From a virus, in the IMG/VR virus record IMGVR_UViG_3300045988_001368, positions 1-5,994 of that record: 5,994 bases of DNA. One strand, 5' to 3'. Under the pieces are notes generated by a model. That model did no database searches. It saw only the letters and a program-made list of their open reading frames with translations, and was not told where the DNA came from. This document shows positions 1 to 5,994 of this stretch, piece after piece (within the stretch, counting starts at the first letter, position 1; each line of letters opens with the position of its first letter). The translations under genes and the position numbers were made by a program.

Positions 1-99
1 CGGACATTACGGAATTTCCGCAGAACATTCACGAGTATCATCGCATGCTCGCGACCGCACAGACAAACGCCATGAAGCTTGAAGAGCTGCAAAAAAAAG
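1..99. repeat. Terminal redundancy, first copy. It is identical to 5896-5994, which indicates a circular genome of 5,895 nt linearised with an assembly overlap.
   Basis: A base-by-base comparison of 1-99 (cggacattacggaatttccg...ctgcaaaaaaaag) with 5896-5994 shows identity over all 99 nt. An ORF reads continuously across the implied junction. Confidence 0.95.
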
Positions 100-149
100 C
101 AGCAGCAGAACCTAAAGCAGAACCTGAAGCAAAGGAGGAAGAAAAGTGA
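1..149 (+). CDS. VP3: Internal scaffolding protein VP3, C-terminal part. It continues the ORF that starts at 5646 and wraps the circular junction. The full protein is 132 aa.
   Basis: The frame with codons at 3, 6, 9... continues the 5646 ORF, because 5895 is divisible by 3. It reads ...DITEFPQNIHEYHRMLATAQTNAMKLEELQKKAAAEPKAEPEAKEEEK and stops at TGA 147-149. That stop overlaps the VP1 GTG start as GTGA. The acidic/lysine-rich tail and the position just upstream of VP1 are typical of gokushovirus VP3. Confidence 0.8.
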   Translation, partial: DITEFPQNIHEYHRMLATAQTNAMKLEELQKKAAAEPKAEPEAKEEEK

Positions 150-1843
150 ATCGAAACAATGAACGGCACTTTAACCAGATTCCGAAAATGAAGGCAAGTC
201 GAACACGATTCAACCGTGACCAGACCATTCTCACAACGTTTGATTCCGGCAAACTGATTCCATTTTACGTGGACGAAGTATTACCAGGCGACACGTTTAG
301 CGTGGACACGTCTGCAATTATCAGAATGACCACACCAAAGTATCCGGTGATGGACGATGCCTTCATTGACTTCTACTACTTCTACTGTCCGAACAGAATC
401 CTGTGGGATGACTTCAGACAGTTCATGGGAGAAGTAGAAGACACACCTTGGACGCCAACTAAAGAATACAAAGTACCAAAGTTAGTATTTAACACTGGAA
501 CGCAAAGCCAACCGTTTGAAGGAAGTATTTTAGACTACATGGGAGTACCGACAAAGGCAATCAACCCCCAAAAAAATAACAGAGTAGGAATAAACGCATT
601 GCCTGTCAGAGCATACGTCAAAATCTGGAACGAATTTTTCAGAGATGAAAACGTAGACAACTCAGCAACATTAAAAACGACAAGTGAAGATCAAAGCTAT
701 GAAGACGGGGGAGAAAATGAAACACTAGACGAAGTTTTAAAGCAAGCATGGAAAGGTGGCAGATGCTTGCCGGTAAACAAGTTCCACGACTACTTCACAA
801 GCTGTCTCCCATATCCTCAGCGCGGACCAGAAACGACATTGCCGATAACGGGCAACGCACCTATCAGATTGGGAAACCAAAACGCAACTTATCTAGAATT
901 TGGTGGACCAGTAGAAATGGTACTAGGAGCAACAAGTGCATCAGACAAACCCGGTTCTCTGGCATATACAAACAAAACGGGAAAGCCCGGAGATAGAAAA
1001 GCTATGCTTTTCACCGGAAAGGAAAAAACAAGCGGCGAAATAGGAGCGGGAGGATGGATGTATGCAGACCTAAGCGAAGTAACCGCTACAACCGTCAACG
1101 ACCTGAGAAAAGCCGTAGCAGTACAGCAGTACTACGAAGCACTTGCAAGAGGTGGCAGCAGATACCGCGAGCAGGTGCAAGCGCTGTGGGATGTGGTTAT
1201 CAGCGATAAAACCGTGCAAATCCCGGAATACCTTGGCGGTGGCAGATATCATGTCAACATGAACCAAATCGTGCAGACCAGCGGACAGCAGACGGACACA
1301 GACACACCTATAGGCGAAACCGGTGCAGTATCAGTAACGCCAGTCAATGAAAGTAGCTTTACGAAATCTTTTGAAGAGCACGGATTTGTAATCGGTGTCT
1401 GTTGTGTGCGACACAATCACAGTTACCAGCAAGGCTTGGAGCGTTTCTGGAGCAGAACTGACCGACTGGACTACTATGTACCGCAGTTCGCAAACTTAGG
1501 TGAGCAGCCTGTAAAAAAGAGGGAAATCATGCTCACAGGCGAAACAACAGACGAAGAGACGTTTGGATATCAGGAAGCCTGGTCAGACTACCGGATGAAA
1601 CCTAACCGCGTATCAGGCAAAATGAGAAGCAACGCAACCGGAACACTGGACTTCTGGCACTACGCGGACGACTACAAAGCCGTACCGACACTGTCACAAG
1701 AGTGGATGGCGGAAGGAAAAGAAGAAATTGCGCGAACGTTAATCGTACAGGAAGAGCCGCAATTTTTCGGTGCTATCAGGGTAGCAAACAAAACCACAAG
1801 ACGGATGCCGTTGTACAGCGTACCGGGCTTGTACAAACTGTAA
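146..1843 (+). CDS. VP1: Major capsid protein VP1 (Microviridae F-like capsid, gokushovirus type), 565 aa.
   Basis: The N-terminal signature is FNRDQTILTTFDSGKLIPFYVDEVLPGDTF. Other conserved blocks are LPVRAYVKIWNEFFRDEN, YYEALARGGSRY, IPEYLGG, FEEHGFVIGV and FGYQEAWSDYR. The GTG start at 146 lies 7 nt after a strong SD (GGAGG, 134-138). The size is typical of gokushovirus VP1. Confidence 0.95.
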   Translation: MNRNNERHFNQIPKMKASRTRFNRDQTILTTFDSGKLIPFYVDEVLPGDTFSVDTSAIIRMTTPKYPVMDDAFIDFYYFYCPNRILWDDFRQFMGEVEDTPWTPTKEYKVPKLVFNTGTQSQPFEGSILDYMGVPTKAINPQKNNRVGINALPVRAYVKIWNEFFRDENVDNSATLKTTSEDQSYEDGGENETLDEVLKQAWKGGRCLPVNKFHDYFTSCLPYPQRGPETTLPITGNAPIRLGNQNATYLEFGGPVEMVLGATSASDKPGSLAYTNKTGKPGDRKAMLFTGKEKTSGEIGAGGWMYADLSEVTATTVNDLRKAVAVQQYYEALARGGSRYREQVQALWDVVISDKTVQIPEYLGGGRYHVNMNQIVQTSGQQTDTDTPIGETGAVSVTPVNESSFTKSFEEHGFVIGVCCVRHNHSYQQGLERFWSRTDRLDYYVPQFANLGEQPVKKREIMLTGETTDEETFGYQEAWSDYRMKPNRVSGKMRSNATGTLDFWHYADDYKAVPTLSQEWMAEGKEEIARTLIVQEEPQFFGAIRVANKTTRRMPLYSVPGLYKL

Positions 1844-1853
1844 GAAAGGAGGA

Positions 1854-1880
1854 AGCCCGGAGAAATCCGGGCTATTTTTA
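1854..1880 (+). terminator. Rho-independent terminator or attenuator hairpin after VP1.
   Basis: The 8-bp stem pairs AGCCCGGA (1854-1861) with TCCGGGCT (1866-1873) around a GAAA tetraloop. It is followed by ATTTTTA (1874-1880). It sits between the VP1 stop (1841-1843) and the VP2 ATG (1882). Confidence 0.7.
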
Positions 1881-1881
1881 A

Positions 1882-2745
1882 ATGGGAGCATTATCAGGAT
1901 TCTTAACAGCACTCAACGTAGCCGGAAACATTGCAAATACAGTTGGAACATTTGCAAACGCCGGAAAACAAATCGCCGGAGCGTTTGGTGGATGGGGTCA
2001 GACGGGCAACAGCCAGAGCCAGGGCGGAAGCACAAGCCAAGGCGGCGGGCACTCAGAAAGCGGAAGCCAAGCGGGAACAAACATCCAACAGGTAAATGAC
2101 TGGCTTAAACAGGCATATGCATACCAAGGGCAAGAAGCAGCCATGCAAGGTAAATACAACAGTCAAAGCATGCTAAAACAGATGGGTTACAACACCTTAC
2201 AAGCAATCATGCAAGGCGTATATAATCACATTGAAAACAGCGTAGCAATGAACTACAACAGTGCAGAAGCACTAGCAAACCGTGAATGGCAAGAGCACAT
2301 GTCAAGCACAGCATACCAGCGAGCCGTTGAGGACATGAAAAAAGCAGGGCTTAACCCTATCTTAGCTTTTTCAAATGGTGGCGCAAGCACACCAGGCGGT
2401 AGTGCGGGAACAATCAGCGGTGCGAGTATGGGTCTCGCAAGCAGCAGTGCACTAGGAGTAAGCAGAAGCGGCGGATTCGTACCAAATGCATACTCAAGTT
2501 CAAGCTGGAGTCAAAGCGACTGGTATAATGCAGCGCAAAGCTGGCAACAAATGCTTAGTACGACACATATGACGCCATACGGACTGCAAAAAGCGCTTAC
2601 AGAAGTCGGAAACGACACAAGCAAAGCCATTACAGATGCAACAGCAAAGGCAGACAAAGGCGCAGGGCAGAACAGAAGCATGAAGCCACAAGACAAAACA
2701 GGAAGCTACGGAGAAAAACGAAAGCCAGGTGATTATTTAAAATGA
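1882..2745 (+). CDS. VP2: DNA pilot / minor capsid protein VP2, 287 aa.
   Basis: It carries the conserved microvirus pilot-protein block REWQEHMSSTAYQRAVEDMKKAGLNPILAF. The N-terminus is hydrophobic and Gly/Ala-rich (MGALSGFLTALNVAGNIANTVG). A G/S/Q low-complexity linker follows at about nt 1987-2076. Its position directly after VP1 fits. The TGA stop overlaps the VP4 ATG as ATGA at 2742-2745. Confidence 0.9.
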   Translation: MGALSGFLTALNVAGNIANTVGTFANAGKQIAGAFGGWGQTGNSQSQGGSTSQGGGHSESGSQAGTNIQQVNDWLKQAYAYQGQEAAMQGKYNSQSMLKQMGYNTLQAIMQGVYNHIENSVAMNYNSAEALANREWQEHMSSTAYQRAVEDMKKAGLNPILAFSNGGASTPGGSAGTISGASMGLASSSALGVSRSGGFVPNAYSSSSWSQSDWYNAAQSWQQMLSTTHMTPYGLQKALTEVGNDTSKAITDATAKADKGAGQNRSMKPQDKTGSYGEKRKPGDYLK

Positions 2746-3761
2746 GTTGTTACAAGCCATTAATAAGGCTGTACAACCCGGAAAACAAAGACATAAGCGG
2801 GCGGGTGTATTCACTTGCCCGCTTTTCTGAAATATCGGGAAAACAGCTCAAATATGAAGATTTGATGTATAGAAAAGATGTCATGCTAATACCATGCGGG
2901 CAGTGTATCGGATGCAGAATCAGACAGAGAGAAGACTGGACAACACGAATAGAATTAGAAGCACGAGACTATCCAAGAGAAGAAGTCTGGTTTATAACAT
3001 TAACATATGACGATGACCACGTACCAGGCATGATAGTAAGCACAGGCGAAATCATGCGAAAAGTACAGTATGTCTGGAAGCCGGGAGAGAAGCGCCCTGA
3101 AAGCGTCCAAACGTTGCTATATACTGACGTTCAAAAGTTCTTAAAACGTCTCAGAAAAGCTTATAGGGGCAAATTACGCTATTTTGTAGCAGGAGAGTAC
3201 GGAGAACAAACAGCCAGGCCGCATTATCATATGATACTGTATGGATGGCAACCAACAGACCTGGAGCACCTATACAAAATACAACACAACGGATATTTCA
3301 CAAGTAAATGGTTAGCGGACCTATGGGGCATGGGTCAAATCCAGATAGCACAAGCAGTGCCGGAAACCTATAGATATGTTGCGGGATACGTTACGAAAAA
3401 AATGTACGAAATTGACGGTCAAAAAGCAAACGAATACTACGAACTAGGGCAACAAAAACCTTTTGCATGTATGAGCCTAAAGCCAGGTTTAGGAGATAAC
3501 TATTACCAAAAGCACAAAGCAGAAATCTGGAGACAAGGCTATATCCAATGCACAAACGGCAAACGCGCACAAATTCCGCGCTATTATGAAAAAATGATGG
3601 AAGCTGAAAACCCACAAAGATTATGGAGAATTAAACAGAACAGACAAGCAACAGCAATTGCAGAAAACCGGCTAAAGTACGAAAACACAAACTTTGCAGA
3701 ACAATGCAAGACGAAAGAAAGGGTCATCAAGAAGCAGATGAAGAAGAGAGGGACACTTTAA
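2742..3761 (+). CDS. VP4: Replication initiation protein VP4 (HUH rolling-circle endonuclease, phiX174 A-like), 339 aa.
   Basis: A Cys cluster (PCGQCIGCR) and motif 1 (FITLTYDD) are present. The HUH motif PHYHMILYG has its HYH codons at 3222-3230. The two-tyrosine catalytic motif YVAGYVTKK compares with YVAKYVNK in phiX174 A. Confidence 0.95.
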   Translation: MSCYKPLIRLYNPENKDISGRVYSLARFSEISGKQLKYEDLMYRKDVMLIPCGQCIGCRIRQREDWTTRIELEARDYPREEVWFITLTYDDDHVPGMIVSTGEIMRKVQYVWKPGEKRPESVQTLLYTDVQKFLKRLRKAYRGKLRYFVAGEYGEQTARPHYHMILYGWQPTDLEHLYKIQHNGYFTSKWLADLWGMGQIQIAQAVPETYRYVAGYVTKKMYEIDGQKANEYYELGQQKPFACMSLKPGLGDNYYQKHKAEIWRQGYIQCTNGKRAQIPRYYEKMMEAENPQRLWRIKQNRQATAIAENRLKYENTNFAEQCKTKERVIKKQMKKRGTL

Positions 3762-3780
3762 CAGTGTCATGGTGTCACCT

Positions 3781-3812
3781 AGCCCAGTACCTATCAAGTA
3801 AGGTACTGGGCT
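3781..3812 (+). other. Perfect 12-bp stem-loop 20 nt downstream of the VP4 stop. Its function is unknown. It could be an ssDNA structural signal (origin or priming site) or a T-tract-less terminator.
   Basis: AGCCCAGTACCT (3781-3792) and AGGTACTGGGCT (3801-3812) are exact reverse complements around an 8-nt loop, ATCAAGTA. No T-run follows; the next bases are ATTGTCGTC. Confidence 0.6.
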
Positions 3813-3873
3813 ATTGTCGTCTAAAGACTCCATGTATCACACTATTCAGTCTATCAAATAGCTATTCTCTTAT

Positions 3874-3916
3874 CGCGCGTGCGCACGCGCGCGAAACGCA
3901 CACGCGCGCACGCGCG
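3874..3916. repeat. GC-rich island made of two 20-nt alternating pyrimidine-purine tracts, with an internal 18-nt perfect palindrome and a direct repeat.
   Basis: Bases 3874-3893 (cgcgcgtgcgcacgcgcgcg) and 3897-3916 (cgcacacgcgcgcacgcgcg) each show perfect Y-R alternation and are separated by AAA. Bases 3874-3891 are their own reverse complement. GCGCACGCGCG occurs at both 3881-3891 and 3906-3916. Bases 3875-3883 are also complementary to 3907-3915, which allows an alternative fold. Confidence 0.85.
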
Positions 3917-3931
3917 GCCTTTTAGGCGCTA

Positions 3932-3961
3932 TTGTTCGCAAGCTCACAAGCGCCGTATAAT
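3932..3961 (+). promoter_or_regulatory. Weak candidate sigma70-type promoter.
   Basis: A perfect TATAAT lies at 3956-3961, but the -35 is poor (TTGTTC, 3932-3937, 18-nt spacer). No ORF lies directly downstream. This is a low-confidence call. Confidence 0.25.
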
Positions 3962-3993
3962 ATTAACTTGTTGTAGGAGTAGTAGTAGGCAAT

Positions 3994-4167
3994 GTGGAAA
4001 AGTTGAAAAGTACTAAAATTTAACGTTAGAACGTAAATAAAAAGCAAAAAACACTGTTGAAAGTTTTGTTGAAAAATTGTTGAATTGTTGAAAGTTCGTT
4101 AAAATGACGGAAACCTTTGTGCAACATTTTGTTGAAAACCTGTTGAAAGTGTTGAAAGTGTTGAAAA
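3994..4167 (+). repeat. Iteron-like, one-directional array of (T)GTTGAAA repeats in non-coding DNA.
   Basis: Perfect GTTGAAA copies start at 4002, 4056, 4068, 4087, 4131, 4142, 4151 and 4160. Seven of these are preceded by T. One-mismatch copies lie at 3994 (GTGGAAA), 4079 (GTTGAAT) and 4098 (GTTAAAA). The last three perfect copies form a 9-nt tandem, TGTTGAAAG x3, at 4141-4167. All copies share one orientation, mostly spaced 8-12 nt apart. An A-rich tract at 4035-4054 sits inside the array. Confidence 0.85.
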
Positions 4168-4308
4168 CGCGCACAGCGCTAAAAAGGAATGGATTTAGCC
4201 GAATTCCGCTGCGCTCCATACGGCAAGGCGCTAAAGCGCCCTCAAAACAAAGGAGCAAAACCGGGTTACAAGAGAAGGTTACAATTTTATTACAAAACAG
4301 CAAAATCA

Positions 4309-4337
4309 TTGAAAAACCTATTGACAAGTGATATAAT
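4309..4337 (+). promoter_or_regulatory. Strong sigma70-type promoter with an extended -10, driving the accessory ORF cluster.
   Basis: The -35 is TTGAAA (4309-4314). An exact 17-nt spacer follows. The TG extension is at 4329-4330 and a perfect TATAAT is at 4332-4337. The predicted transcription start is near 4344, about 25 nt before the SD-preceded ATG at 4369. Confidence 0.6.
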
Positions 4338-4368
4338 AAGGTCAAGGAAAGAAAGGAAGGTGCCCAAA

Positions 4369-4530
4369 ATGACACAGAAAAGCTACAGAGTCGAAATGAC
4401 AAACACAAAAACAGGCAAGAAAGAAGTACGCCACACATTAGCAGAAAGCAAAGAACTCGCAAAGCGTCTCATCTGGGTAAGAAATGACATCGAAAGCCAA
4501 TGGAAGATAAACAAAATAGAAGAGGATTAA
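4369..4530 (+). CDS. Hypothetical small protein, 53 aa, first ORF of the accessory cluster.
   Basis: ATG 4369 lies 8 nt after AGGAAGG (4355-4360 region) and downstream of the 4309-4337 promoter. The sequence is MTQKSYRVEMTNTKTGKKEVRHTLAESKELAKRLIWVRNDIESQWKINKIEED. The track ORF begins at 4189, but that extension would contain the promoter and has no usable SD. I recognise no family. Confidence 0.5.
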   Translation: MTQKSYRVEMTNTKTGKKEVRHTLAESKELAKRLIWVRNDIESQWKINKIEED

Positions 4531-4545
4531 GGAGGGTTGACAAAA

Positions 4546-4935
4546 ATGCTTAAAAGCTATATCATGGACACAGAAGCAAACGAAAAAGTCGGACAGCACT
4601 TCAAAGTAAAGGAATTCGCTTGCAAAGACGGTTCACAGGTAGTTTTTATAGACAGTTACCTAGTGTCAATCCTAGACATCCTCAGAAACGAAGTCGGAAA
4701 ACCTGTAATCATCAACAGCGGATACCGGACACCGACAAGGAATAAAGAAGCAGGCGGTGCAAAATACTCATACCATATGCGCGGTATGGCCGCAGACATT
4801 CGAATAAACGGAATGAGCTCAAAAGAAATTGCCGGCAAACTGGATAAAATCATTCCGTATGAATGCGGCATTATCGTATACAAAAACTGGGTGCACATAG
4901 ACACGCGCACCAAAAAATACAGAAAGGGGGTATAA
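4546..4935 (+). CDS. Zinc metallopeptidase of family M15 (Peptidase_M15_3 / DUF882 / VanY-like LAS fold), a candidate peptidoglycan peptidase, 129 aa.
   Basis: The motifs are FKVKEFACKDG, INSGYRTPTRNKEAGGAKYSYH and MRGMAAD, followed by NWVHIDTR. The zinc triad is H77 (CAT 4774-4776), D84 (GAC 4795-4797) and H117 (CAC 4894-4896), with H-x6-D spacing as in VanX/VanY-type enzymes. ATG 4546 lies 10 nt after GGAGG (4531-4535). The track's TTG at 4537 is too close to the SD. There is no N-terminal signal or TM segment. Confidence 0.85.
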   Translation: MLKSYIMDTEANEKVGQHFKVKEFACKDGSQVVFIDSYLVSILDILRNEVGKPVIINSGYRTPTRNKEAGGAKYSYHMRGMAADIRINGMSSKEIAGKLDKIIPYECGIIVYKNWVHIDTRTKKYRKGV

Positions 4936-4936
4936 A

Positions 4937-5059
4937 ATGGCACTGATTTCCATTAAAGACGTCAAACAGGCAATCCGCATTATGATGCAGATTCTCGAAA
5001 AGCTTGACGAAATCTACCACGCACTGCACGATAGCATCAACGAAAACGAAAAGGAGTAA
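4937..5059 (+). CDS. Hypothetical small protein, 40 aa. It is not in the supplied ORF track, presumably because it is below the length cutoff.
   Basis: ATG 4937 lies 6 nt after GGGGG (4926-4930) and 1 nt after the peptidase stop. It reads MALISIKDVKQAIRIMMQILEKLDEIYHALHDSINENEKE and ends at TAA 5057-5059. It fills what would otherwise be a 128-nt gap in a compact genome. It looks like an amphipathic helix, not a TM segment. Confidence 0.45.
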   Translation: MALISIKDVKQAIRIMMQILEKLDEIYHALHDSINENEKE

Positions 5060-5063
5060 AGCC

Positions 5064-5291
5064 ATGATGAACAAAACATGGAACGTAAGAGACCAGACCA
5101 AAGAAGCACTGGAAGATTTACTCGAACGAAAGTACAAAGAAATTGACGGCAATTACAAGATGCTTAAAAAAGTATCAAACATCGGAGACGCTAAAAAGCT
5201 AGTAGAAGAGATTTGGAAAATGAAAAGCTTTGCAAACGCCATCGAAATGGAACTAATCAGAAGGGAGTACAACAATGGCACGACATCGTAA
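5064..5291 (+). CDS. Hypothetical protein, 75 aa, hydrophilic and predicted helical.
   Basis: ATG 5064 lies 7 nt after AAGGAG (5051-5056). The track start at TTG 5004 has no SD and would overlap the 40-aa ORF. The sequence is MMNKTWNVRDQTKEALEDLLERKYKEIDGNYKMLKKVSNIGDAKKLVEEIWKMKSFANAIEMELIRREYNNGTTS. I recognise no family. Confidence 0.55.
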   Translation: MMNKTWNVRDQTKEALEDLLERKYKEIDGNYKMLKKVSNIGDAKKLVEEIWKMKSFANAIEMELIRREYNNGTTS

Positions 5292-5397
5292 AACAATGAA
5301 CGGCGCAAAAGACCGGCGAATGTTCAACGTAACCGCAAGAAAGACGAAAGCTATCAACCTTAGCCAGAAGCCCATGCGCGGCGGCATCCGGCTGTAA
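5275..5397 (+). CDS. Small, highly basic DNA-binding/packaging protein (phiX174 J-like, gokushovirus ORF8-like), 40 aa. It is not in the supplied ORF track.
   Basis: ATG 5275 lies 7 nt after AAGGGAG (5261-5267). The sequence is MARHRKTMNGAKDRRMFNVTARKTKAINLSQKPMRGGIRL, with 12 K/R against 1 acidic residue. The C-terminal PMRGG(I/F/Y)RL-type ending is common in small basic microvirus proteins. It overlaps the upstream ORF by 17 nt in another frame. Confidence 0.7.
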   Translation: MARHRKTMNGAKDRRMFNVTARKTKAINLSQKPMRGGIRL

Positions 5398-5413
5398 AAG
5401 AAAGGAAAAGACA

Positions 5414-5653
5414 ATGGAGCATCTGTATTATGGACTGTGGGACAATGTAGCAAAGTGTTACGCATGGGTAGGCGAAAGCAAGAACGACGCAACCTTTGCA
5501 CGGATGTGCAATGTTATGGCAAAGGACGGAAAAACCTTTGTAGGGCAGGCGCCGGGGGACTACGTCGGCTACAAGCTGGCAAAGTTCAACGATGAAACCG
5601 GAGCCTTCGCCAACGACAAAGAGAAAGCATGGGAGGGCAGGCCTAATGAATAA
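5414..5653 (+). CDS. VP5: VP5-like conserved gokushovirus non-structural protein, 79 aa.
   Basis: The pattern is Y..WDNVAKCY......NDATFARMC.......F...PGDYVGYKLAKFNDETGAF. This matches my memory of the gokushovirus VP5 signature (..D.k...y..PF....A.R.F....PEDY.LY.iG.yDd.tG.f). An AGGA SD lies 7 nt upstream. Its stop overlaps the VP3 start as ATGAATAA. The position before VP3 is canonical. Confidence 0.65.
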   Translation: MEHLYYGLWDNVAKCYAWVGESKNDATFARMCNVMAKDGKTFVGQAPGDYVGYKLAKFNDETGAFANDKEKAWEGRPNE

Positions 5654-5994
5654 GCGATACGAAGAGGGGCGAAAGCCCTTCTTTTCTGAATCGGGCGAAA
5701 AGATGCGGAAACAATATGTCTGGACAAAGAACGAAAAAGGACAGGAAGTGCTGCAAGAAACAGCACCAATCGACATCCAACAGGAAATTGAAAGCTATGC
5801 AGACGAGTGTGATATCAAAAGCATTGTCCGAAAAGCAAGTTTTGACCCGCAGTTTCTGAAAAGCCTGTCACAAGGAGCATTAGATGACACATACACGGAC
5901 ATTACGGAATTTCCGCAGAACATTCACGAGTATCATCGCATGCTCGCGACCGCACAGACAAACGCCATGAAGCTTGAAGAGCTGCAAAAAAAAG
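5646..5994 (+). CDS. VP3: Internal scaffolding protein VP3, N-terminal part. The ORF runs off the window end and continues at 1-149 on the circle.
   Basis: ATG 5646 lies 9 nt after GGAGG (5632-5636). It reads MNKRYEEGRKPFFSESGEKMRKQYVWTKNEKGQEVLQETAPIDIQQEIESYADECDIKSIVRKASFDPQFL... The IQ.EI.SY...CDI..I block is typical of gokushovirus VP3. There is no stop before the window end. Confidence 0.8.
   Translation, partial: MNKRYEEGRKPFFSESGEKMRKQYVWTKNEKGQEVLQETAPIDIQQEIESYADECDIKSIVRKASFDPQFLKSLSQGALDDTYTDITEFPQNIHEYHRMLATAQTNAMKLEELQKK
5896..5994. repeat. Terminal redundancy, second copy. It is identical to 1-99.
   Basis: Exact 99-nt identity with the window start. Confidence 0.95.

Follow-up and report, generated by a model that had tools for sequence, protein, structure and literature searches.

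A portable, invertible cassette with the sequence grammar of a bacterial chromosome origin in gut gokushoviruses

We have analysed the whole 5,994-nt stretch (the window) of IMG/VR virus record IMGVR_UViG_3300045988_001368 (positions 1 to 5,994), which is the circular genome of a gokushovirus, and describe in it a non-coding cassette that has the sequence grammar of bacterial origins and is located downstream of VP4, between VP4 and the small open reading frames (ORFs). The entire conserved, invertible unit is 213 bp (3956-4168) and contains ten same-direction boxes in three clusters, with boxes 1 and 2 positioned 4 nt from five DnaA-trios. It is probably a self-contained mimic of a bacterial chromosome origin, with DnaA-dependent opening of the double-stranded replicative form as its function. 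Judged from sequence, binding of host DnaA to the array is highly likely and an origin or unwinding role of the cassette is favoured to a clearly lesser degree; we infer DnaA binding, unwinding and the stage of the phage cycle at which they would occur from the conservation and the comparison with host origins given below.

A preliminary description of this DNA had reported a one-directional array of iteron-like repeats, and the array was recovered as described. Eight perfect copies of GTTGAAA are present in the window, all on the + strand (4002, 4056, 4068, 4087, 4131, 4142, 4151 and 4160), along with three one-mismatch copies within the array (GTGGAAA at 3994, GTTGAAT at 4079 and GTTAAAA at 4098), seven of the copies being TGTTGAAA. 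A genome-wide count established that perfect GTTGAAA is confined to the array and that TTTCAAC does not occur in the genome. A count of eight was reached in none of 200 dinucleotide shuffles (shuffle mean 1.3), and one-mismatch copies outside the array are at chance level. The terminal tandem (TGTTGAAAG x 2.9 at 4141-4166, 100% matching by Tandem Repeats Finder) and the A-rich stretch at 4035-4054 are present as noted earlier; the curvature then suggested may apply solely to the A/T-tract spacer. The earlier coordinates are correct for the repeats (3994-4166) but omit the left third of the unit, 3956-3992, which comprises an AT-rich stretch, TTGTTG and a (TAG)n run.

The repeats behave as variants of the DnaA box. 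In 121 aligned elements homologous box positions toggle between TGTTGAAAA, TGTGGAAAA and TGTGGATAA, the last of which complements the DnaA box consensus TTATCCACA exactly. In 22 of the 121 elements box 4 carries this perfect DnaA box, TGTGGATAA, box 7 is TGTGGAAAA in 41, and position 4 over all aligned boxes is T in 83%, G in 16% and C in 1%. This last distribution bears on the proposal, made earlier, that the array is a set of Spo0A operators sensing sporulation, as in phi29. TGTTGAA and TGTCGAA differ at a single position, B. subtilis oriC contains 0A boxes that overlap its DnaA boxes, and many Oscillospirales sporulate, all of which would fit such a function. With C at the critical position in 1% of 1,200 aligned boxes compared with 16% for the G of the DnaA consensus, and with the perfect DnaA box recurring while a perfect 0A box does not, we consider Spo0A operators extremely unlikely.

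The left third of the cassette supplies the elements which accompany DnaA boxes in bacteria. The basal unwinding system of bacterial origins is composed of one or more DnaA boxes, DnaA-trios (3'-GAT-5') and A/T-rich DNA (PMC8287927, PMC6669920, PMC10201434), trios being recognized as at least three trinucleotides with a central A and the consensus 3'-GAT-5' (PMC8287927); from the complementary sequence given in PMC10201434, the trio strand of B. subtilis can be read as TAGTAGAAGTAATAGTAG. In the cassette, five central-A trinucleotides (TAG GAG TAG TAG TAG, 3974-3988) are separated by 4 nt, within the 16 bp permitted, from box 1 (TGTGGAAAA, 3993-4001), which has one mismatch to the DnaA box TGTGGATAA where two are permitted relative to the consensus, or where the box of the species itself may serve instead. 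The trios are located 5' of the box on the strand reading TGTGGATAA, with AT-rich DNA beyond them, and this strand arrangement equals that of 10 dnaA-dnaN spacers and of B. subtilis 5'-CTACTATTACTTCTACTA-3' (the complement of its trios). A chromosomal location beside dnaA/dnaN is the element that is absent, the cassette being situated in a gokushovirus genome. The window contains one instance of a strict form of the arrangement, (TAG)>=3 followed by a box at most 8 nt away, and 300 shuffles contained none.

Arrays of the same composition are found at bacterial origins. One genome per species from 185,579 bacterial and archaeal species was scanned with the pattern TGTTGAAA-N1-12-TGTKGAAA-N1-12-TGTKGAAA, yielding at least 120 loci with three such boxes. 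Among the matches listed, dnaA is directly beside the array in 16 of 120 (13%), compared with approximately 0.3% expected for an 8-kb block, and 40 of 120 are from Oscillospiraceae, Ruminococcus, Ruminococcaceae or other Clostridia in gut samples, which account for most of the dnaA-adjacent loci. At two loci (L146 and L169) DnaA and the beta clamp (DnaN) are encoded on either side of the array, as confirmed by Pfam; the DnaA probe used in tblastn served as a detector only (33-46% identity over ~430 residues). The dnaA-dnaN spacers are packed with TTTTCAACA and TTTTCCACA, reaching as many as 21 boxes per 400 nt, and the 112 boxes of 12 such spacers are TGTTGAAA in 79% and TGTGGAAA in 20%, the same mix as in the phage. 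Boxes of the TTTTCAACA/TTTTCCACA type are apparently used in Oscillospirales origins. At their end, immediately ahead of dnaN, the host spacers have two boxes followed by GGGG, trios and A/T-rich DNA, an order that on the other strand reads AT-rich-(TAG)3-5-GGGG-box-box, with a 4-nt spacer in all three loci compared (L146, L169 and L174); a trio run like that of the phage is present in these and in a fourth host origin (L243). The L146 origin ends in ...TATATATGTT TAGTAGTAGTAGTAG GGGG TGTTGAAAC TGTTGAAAA and the phage cassette in ...TATAATATTAACTTGTTG TAGGAGTAGTAGTAG GCAA TGTGGAAAA GTTGAAAA, and TGTGGAAAAGTTGAAAG is also present in the oriC of L146. Adjacency to dnaA, co-occurrence of canonical-type boxes, box density and the trio ending are all independent of the scan pattern. 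The resemblance between phage and host is one of grammar and not of extended homology: recent capture from a host was rejected, as blastn matches between the cassette and the 120 bacterial loci were of box length only, and comparison of the cassette with PLSDB plasmids gave no match.

The cassette is maintained among related phages as a unit of nearly fixed geometry. When the entire intergenic region was used as query in a sensitive DNA search, 50 phage records were detected, many of which are similar to the window at positions ~3956-4170 only, KT264790 being one example. Thirteen such genomes, and subsequently 121 elements, were aligned and revealed a common architecture consisting of an A/T-only stretch, TTGTTGTAG, TAG triplets, a short spacer, two boxes, a ~45-nt spacer, four boxes, a ~36-nt spacer and three or four boxes. 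The trio run is the best conserved block of the alignment, reaching (TAG)6 in relatives, TTGTTGTAG is almost invariant, 12-30 nt of pure A/T occupy the position of 3956-3973, and box 1 is TGTGGAAAA, TGTTGAAAT or AGTGGAAAA. The sequence of the ~45-nt spacer drifts between A-rich and T-rich, and several intervals are nevertheless base-exact in 119-120 of 121 elements: 19 nt from trio start to box 1 (119 elements), 12 nt from box 3 to box 4 (119) and 11 nt from box 4 to box 5 (120). Boxes 1 and 3 start 62 nt apart in 96 elements and 61 nt apart in 22 (118 of 121), and the spacer 2 interval is 42-45 nt in 120. In relatives selected solely by VP4 similarity the array is conserved in at least 77 of 80, and the motif is restricted to the cassette unit in each relative examined. 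A k-mer search with all genomes in gene orientation detected nothing shared other than ribosome-binding-site-like words and the module itself.

This pattern of conservation also argues against a simple DnaA sponge or sensor, in which the array would titrate or sense host DnaA, either blocking host initiation or tying phage transcription to DnaA-ATP, without acting as an origin. With some ten boxes per genome, a multicopy replicative form would take a large amount of DnaA out of circulation, datA-like clusters and multicopy box plasmids act in this way in E. coli and B. subtilis, and a strong promoter-like site is situated ~140 nt downstream. Conservation of the cassette is, however, strongest in the trios, in the exact 19-nt distance from their start to box 1 and in the AT-rich DNA, all useless for pure titration, and we regard this possibility as quite unlikely.

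The motif does not follow the phage initiator. The preliminary description had interpreted the repeats as iterons recognized by the Rep protein VP4 beside a nick-site hairpin. What holds of that interpretation is an ordered, one-directional array of putative protein-binding sites of origin type, confined to one non-coding cassette and kept in relatives; VP4 as the binder does not. The TGTTGAAA consensus is the same in clades whose VP4 is 37-47%, 55-57% and 80-100% identical to that of the window, and as the motif is kept at VP4 identities of 37-47% there is no co-variation with VP4 over the range of 37-100%. A directional, non-coding, conserved array downstream of VP4 is what iterons for VP4 or another phage protein would look like, and origins combining iterons with a nick site are common among HUH replicons. 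The same motif, with its DnaA-box variants, spacing and trio ending, is shared with bacterial dnaA-dnaN origins that encode no VP4, the cassette is elsewhere and inverted in one clade, and no hairpin is found in or abutting it, the nearest (3874-3916 and 3780-3813) being at least 40 nt outside and remaining in place when the cassette inverts. Iterons are for these reasons very unlikely.

The cassette is a portable and invertible unit carried by hundreds of gut gokushoviruses. In 115 near-complete genomes with the left-end motif the unit is in gene orientation in 88 and opposite in 27. In the clade with VP4 of ~37-40% identity (L008/L009) it is both inverted and relocated between VP2 and VP4, and in some close relatives (VP4 93-96%, including L067, L103 and L017) inversion has occurred in situ. 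L067 has flanks collinear with those of the window, and the segment reversed between the GC-rich palindrome and CGCGCACAGCGC corresponds exactly to 3956-4168, which maps the inversion breakpoints to 3956 and 4168. In an unbiased sample of 80 relatives picked by VP4 alone, 70 pass a strict orientation test, of which 63 have one orientation and 7 the other (~10% inverted). Occurrence of the cassette either way round in near-identical backgrounds fits a function in duplex DNA. Comparable GC-rich blocks are located beside the cassette in most relatives, where they mark inversion boundaries.

The sequence AACTTG, which is found at a single place in the genome, directly on the 5' side of the trios, raises the possibility that the cassette is instead the plus-strand origin, with DnaA-assisted melting exposing a single-stranded VP4 nick site in (A)ACTTGTTG for rolling-circle replication. 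The phiX174 cleavage site is CAACTTG^A, HUH nucleases require a single-stranded substrate, and TTGTTGTAG is nearly invariant in the phages and missing from host origins. A complete phiX174-type CAACTTG^ATATTAATAAC inside the Rep gene was not found; AACTTG alone matches, and its C varies. When loci were collected without requiring AACTTG it proved variable (AATTTG, TATTTG, TACTTT, TTATTG), and the coding strand of Chp2 lacks it. Strand composition provides a second indication. At four-fold degenerate sites on the coding strand of the VP1 and VP4 genes of 154 related genomes, A is 43-50% and T ~12%, an AT skew of ~+0.55 that represents an unusually strong strand bias and is unrelated to cassette orientation (+0.54 with the cassette direct, n = 116; +0.57 inverted, n = 38). 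If the choice of packaged strand depended on the cassette and were mirrored in the skew, packaging would switch to the opposite strand in inverted variants and the sign should differ, yet the same sign is seen; transcription or codon use could equally be the source of the skew. AACTTG as a phiX-like nick site is thus weakened by both the variants and the equal skew, a nick site elsewhere than in the cassette has modest support, and DnaA-assisted rolling circle appears unlikely.

Folding gave no sign of a structured single-strand element, whether a complementary-strand origin, a packaging signal or a small RNA. Signals of these kinds are located between genes in phiX174, G4 and M13, and the region studied here is strongly conserved. 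RNAalifold predicted 0 pairs in 40 diverse copies, the cassette folded as single-stranded DNA does not surpass shuffles (z = +0.73), nor do single-sequence predictions for both strands of the cassette and of 4165-4275, and Rfam (E<=1) and ARAGORN tRNA/tmRNA searches of the region gave no match. The cassette is also present in both orientations and has no inverse copy that would place a box in a stem. A structured element is consequently barely credible, and the packaging signal mentioned in the preliminary description has gained no supporting evidence.

Comparison with known replication systems places the cassette closest to oriC. Its elements, their order and the strands they occupy are those of the bacterial basal unwinding system of B. 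subtilis incC, which was reportedly characterized by Richardson (2016 and 2019) and Pelliciari (2021), it shares its 4-nt spacer length with Oscillospiraceae dnaA-dnaN origins (there G-rich), and further box clusters follow boxes 1-2 as in chromosomal origins. Unlike oriC, it resides in a 6-kb single-stranded DNA phage with its own rolling-circle Rep and not beside dnaA/dnaN, is only 213 bp with all boxes in one direction, is portable (two positions, both orientations) and has a phage-specific TTGTTG between the trios and AT-rich DNA. Plasmid and phage origins such as P1 oriR, RK2 oriV, pSC101 and F contain iterons for their own initiator, on which they depend, plus a few DnaA boxes, DnaA being auxiliary. 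In common with origins like P1 oriR, the cassette belongs to a mobile replicon with boxes for host DnaA near an AT-rich region; it differs in having no second repeat family and in that the entire grammar, including the trios, is chromosomal. The phiX174 origin (30 bp inside gene A) comes from the same phage family, with an HUH Rep and with AACTTG shared with the cleavage site, whereas the cassette lies outside the Rep gene, is free of hairpins, has an unconserved AACTTG and, in contrast to HUH iteron origins, has repeats that do not track VP4. The A-site of the ABC primosome, described by Masai and Arai, is a single-strand hairpin containing a DnaA box, from which the complementary strand is primed. 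In both cases a single-stranded replicon would make use of DnaA, but the A-site needs its box in a duplex stem and the boxes of the cassette are all direct repeats with no inverse copy and no fold. Titration clusters of the datA type also have dense boxes outside oriC and lack a registered trio run or unwinding element.

A mechanism consistent with these data can be proposed. On the replicative form, host DnaA-ATP would fill the three box clusters, the fixed-length A/T-tract spacers allowing cooperation between them, and a DnaA oligomer would grow from boxes 1-2 onto the (TAG)n strand and melt the neighbouring AT-rich DNA. The complement of the trios, CTACTACTACTCCTA, contains TnnT motifs resembling the B. 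subtilis DnaD recognition element, and in a Firmicutes host this CTA strand could offer these motifs to DnaD (PMC10201434), followed by loading of the helicase by DnaB/DnaI. The phage would thereby gain a DnaA-dependent, orientation-independent start for duplex replication alongside VP4 rolling-circle synthesis of progeny strands. A more far-reaching version, which we advance only tentatively and consider less probable than not, is a DnaA-only portable origin whose grammar was copied from the oriC of a Clostridia host, so that the replicative form would be a theta-type, cell-cycle-coupled minichromosome, possibly in a plasmid-like carrier state, with VP4 rolling circle reserved for progeny. 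This would constitute a two-origin life cycle, new for Microviridae.

Several observations weigh against DnaA-dependent opening by a chromosome-type origin. To our knowledge no microvirus needs DnaA, and phage of the phiX174 type do not. Boxes and trios are both lacking from the reference gokushoviruses Chp2, phiMH2K and SpV4, and the module is therefore not required for the basic cycle of the family. The published formal rule for an unwinding system is loose, with 8 occurrences in the genome against 4.4 +/- 2.1 per shuffled genome; as it is unspecific, conservation and the comparison with host origins carry the weight. In that comparison the scan pattern contained the phage motif, and the motif in the bacterial matches is therefore present by construction. 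Some array matches are from Bacteroidales, Spirochaetales and other phyla. Finally, TTTTCAACA deviates from the E. coli-defined box at the normally invariant C, and its designation as a putative DnaA box derives from its position in origins of uncultured genomes and not from biochemistry.

The box type and trio layout, combined with strong Shine-Dalgarno sites (AAGGAGG before VP1) that fit a Firmicutes-type host, point to Oscillospirales or related Clostridia as hosts. The TTTTCAACA box type and trio layout would then permit sequence-based host prediction (Oscillospirales) for hundreds of uncultured, host-unassigned gokushoviruses, and TTTTCAACA should count as a DnaA box in origin annotation of Oscillospirales. 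If DnaA acts on the cassette, textbook microvirus replication, consisting of Rep nicking and host priming without DnaA, misses a major gut lineage, and the 213-bp cassette constitutes a testable minimal DnaA-dependent origin for the hard-to-study Clostridia. The cassette also suggests a possible route by which such phages, having no integrase, persist in bacteria of the gut. In the literature, full-text searches did not retrieve gokushovirus with DnaA or Microviridae with DnaA box, most subscription journals being outside the coverage so that a prior description is possible. No link of Gokushovirinae to iterons, DnaA or oriC was retrieved, titles and abstracts on Microviridae and DnaA or on DnaA-trios and phage mention no such module, and a search for TTTTCAACA returned primer sequences only.

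Table 1. Genes of the window, parts of the cassette and its flanks.
Feature	Position	Strand	Remarks
VP1 major capsid protein	146-1843		Pfam Phage_F, E = 4e-137
VP2 pilot protein	1882-2745		PHROG 8742
Rep/VP4	2742-3761		REP_ORF2-G2P
GC-rich alternating purine/pyrimidine imperfect palindrome, 43 nt	3874-3916	.	left flank; unmoved on cassette inversion
AT-rich stretch TATAATATTAAC then conserved TTGTTG	3956-3973	+	83% A+T; left cassette end; candidate duplex-unwinding element
DnaA-trio run TAG GAG TAG TAG TAG	3974-3988	+	5'-TAG-3' = consensus 3'-GAT-5'
Spacer GCAA, 4 nt, trios to first box	3989-3992	+	GGGG or GGGC in host origins
Boxes 1 and 2: TGTGGAAAA overlapping AGTTGAAAA	3993-4009	+	
Spacer 1, A/T tracts	4010-4054	+	sequence variable (A-rich or T-rich in relatives), length fixed
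Boxes 3-6: TGTTGAAAG, TGTTGAAAA, TGTTGAATT, TGTTGAAAG	4055-4094	+	start spacing 12, 11, 8 nt
Spacer 2 with semi-conserved TTGTGCAAC	4095-4129	+	extra box here in one clade
Boxes 7-10: TGTTGAAAA cc TGTTGAAAG TGTTGAAAG TGTTGAAAA	4130-4167	+	start spacing 11, 9, 9 nt; right cassette end
GC-rich right flank CGCGCACAGCGC	4168-4179	.	unmoved on cassette inversion
M15 peptidase	4537-4935		
VP5	5414-5653		

Related arrangements were also detected outside the gokushoviruses and the dnaA-linked origins. At five Bacteroidales loci (L184, L219, L179, L165 and L194, from Alistipes, Bacteroides and others) short intergenic arrays of 3-4 TGTTGAAAA are found with inverse copies near; these are not beside dnaA within the 8-kb block and may be DnaA-box clusters or origins not linked to dnaA. 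A scan for the canonical-box version, TAGTAGTAG...TGTGGATAA, gave 66 matches, nearly all in large contigs possibly including host oriC. Six large IMG/VR contigs (L359, L372, L408, L420, L393 and L378) have AT-rich-(TAG)3-GGGC-TGTGGATAA-TGTGGATAA with up to 10 DnaA boxes near, and represent either host oriC that ended up in 'viral' contigs or oriC-like modules borne by large phages or plasmids. The same device with canonical boxes was sought in other microviruses and rejected, as a single distant microvirus with two boxes only was found. In this genome (L416:566-591; VP1 37% identical) an inverted DnaA-box-like pair flanks a TAG run, TTACCCACA-gggc-TAGTAGTAG-acatgccc-TGTGGATAA, and is possibly due to chance because there are only two boxes. 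A 23.6-kb IMG/VR contig that is not a microvirus (L258:2040-2313) has A/T-rich DNA, GTAGTAGTAG and arrays of GTTGAAAA/TGTTGAAAA facing both ways beside a phage-type nucleotidase-like ORF, and may be a different phage type carrying a similar DnaA-box/trio module.

The closest GenBank relatives of the window are human and pig gut gokushoviruses, with 86-87% identity across most of the genome. Just past the VP4 stop a perfect 13-bp hairpin is located at 3780-3813 (TAGCCCAGTACCT / AGGTACTGGGCTA, loop ATCAAGTA), the reverse complement of the loop, TACTTGAT, having ACTTGAT in common with the phiX174 cleavage site. The hairpin is unchanged in relatives with VP4 of at least 72% identity and missing from deeper clades; it could be a terminator or an origin signal, and a family-wide origin was rejected given its restriction to, and invariance within, the clade of VP4 >=72%. 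An 8.8-kb record (L293) considered as a module-less relative proved to be an assembly chimera in which the gokushovirus sequence gives way, immediately past the VP4 hairpin, to portal, Mu-F-like and terminase genes of tailed-phage type. The single-stranded DNA fold of the 3874-3916 palindrome has an energy of -24 kcal/mol (z = -1.9).

To the right of the cassette, positions 4167-4269 form a second exchangeable module, 95-98% identical to MT121961 and KX513876, genomes that otherwise barely match, and in MT121961 the copy is in a different place and on the other strand of the record. This module covers the start of ORF 4189-4530, which belongs to no known family, and has no folding signal. ORF 4104-4331 overlaps the array and was rejected as coding, having no PHROG family and containing 1-nt indels in relatives. 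The best promoter-like site of the region, at 4309-4337, consists of TTGAAA-17 nt-TATAAT with a TG extension (11/12 matches) and is positioned upstream of an ATG at 4369 that is preceded by a GGAAGG ribosome-binding site.

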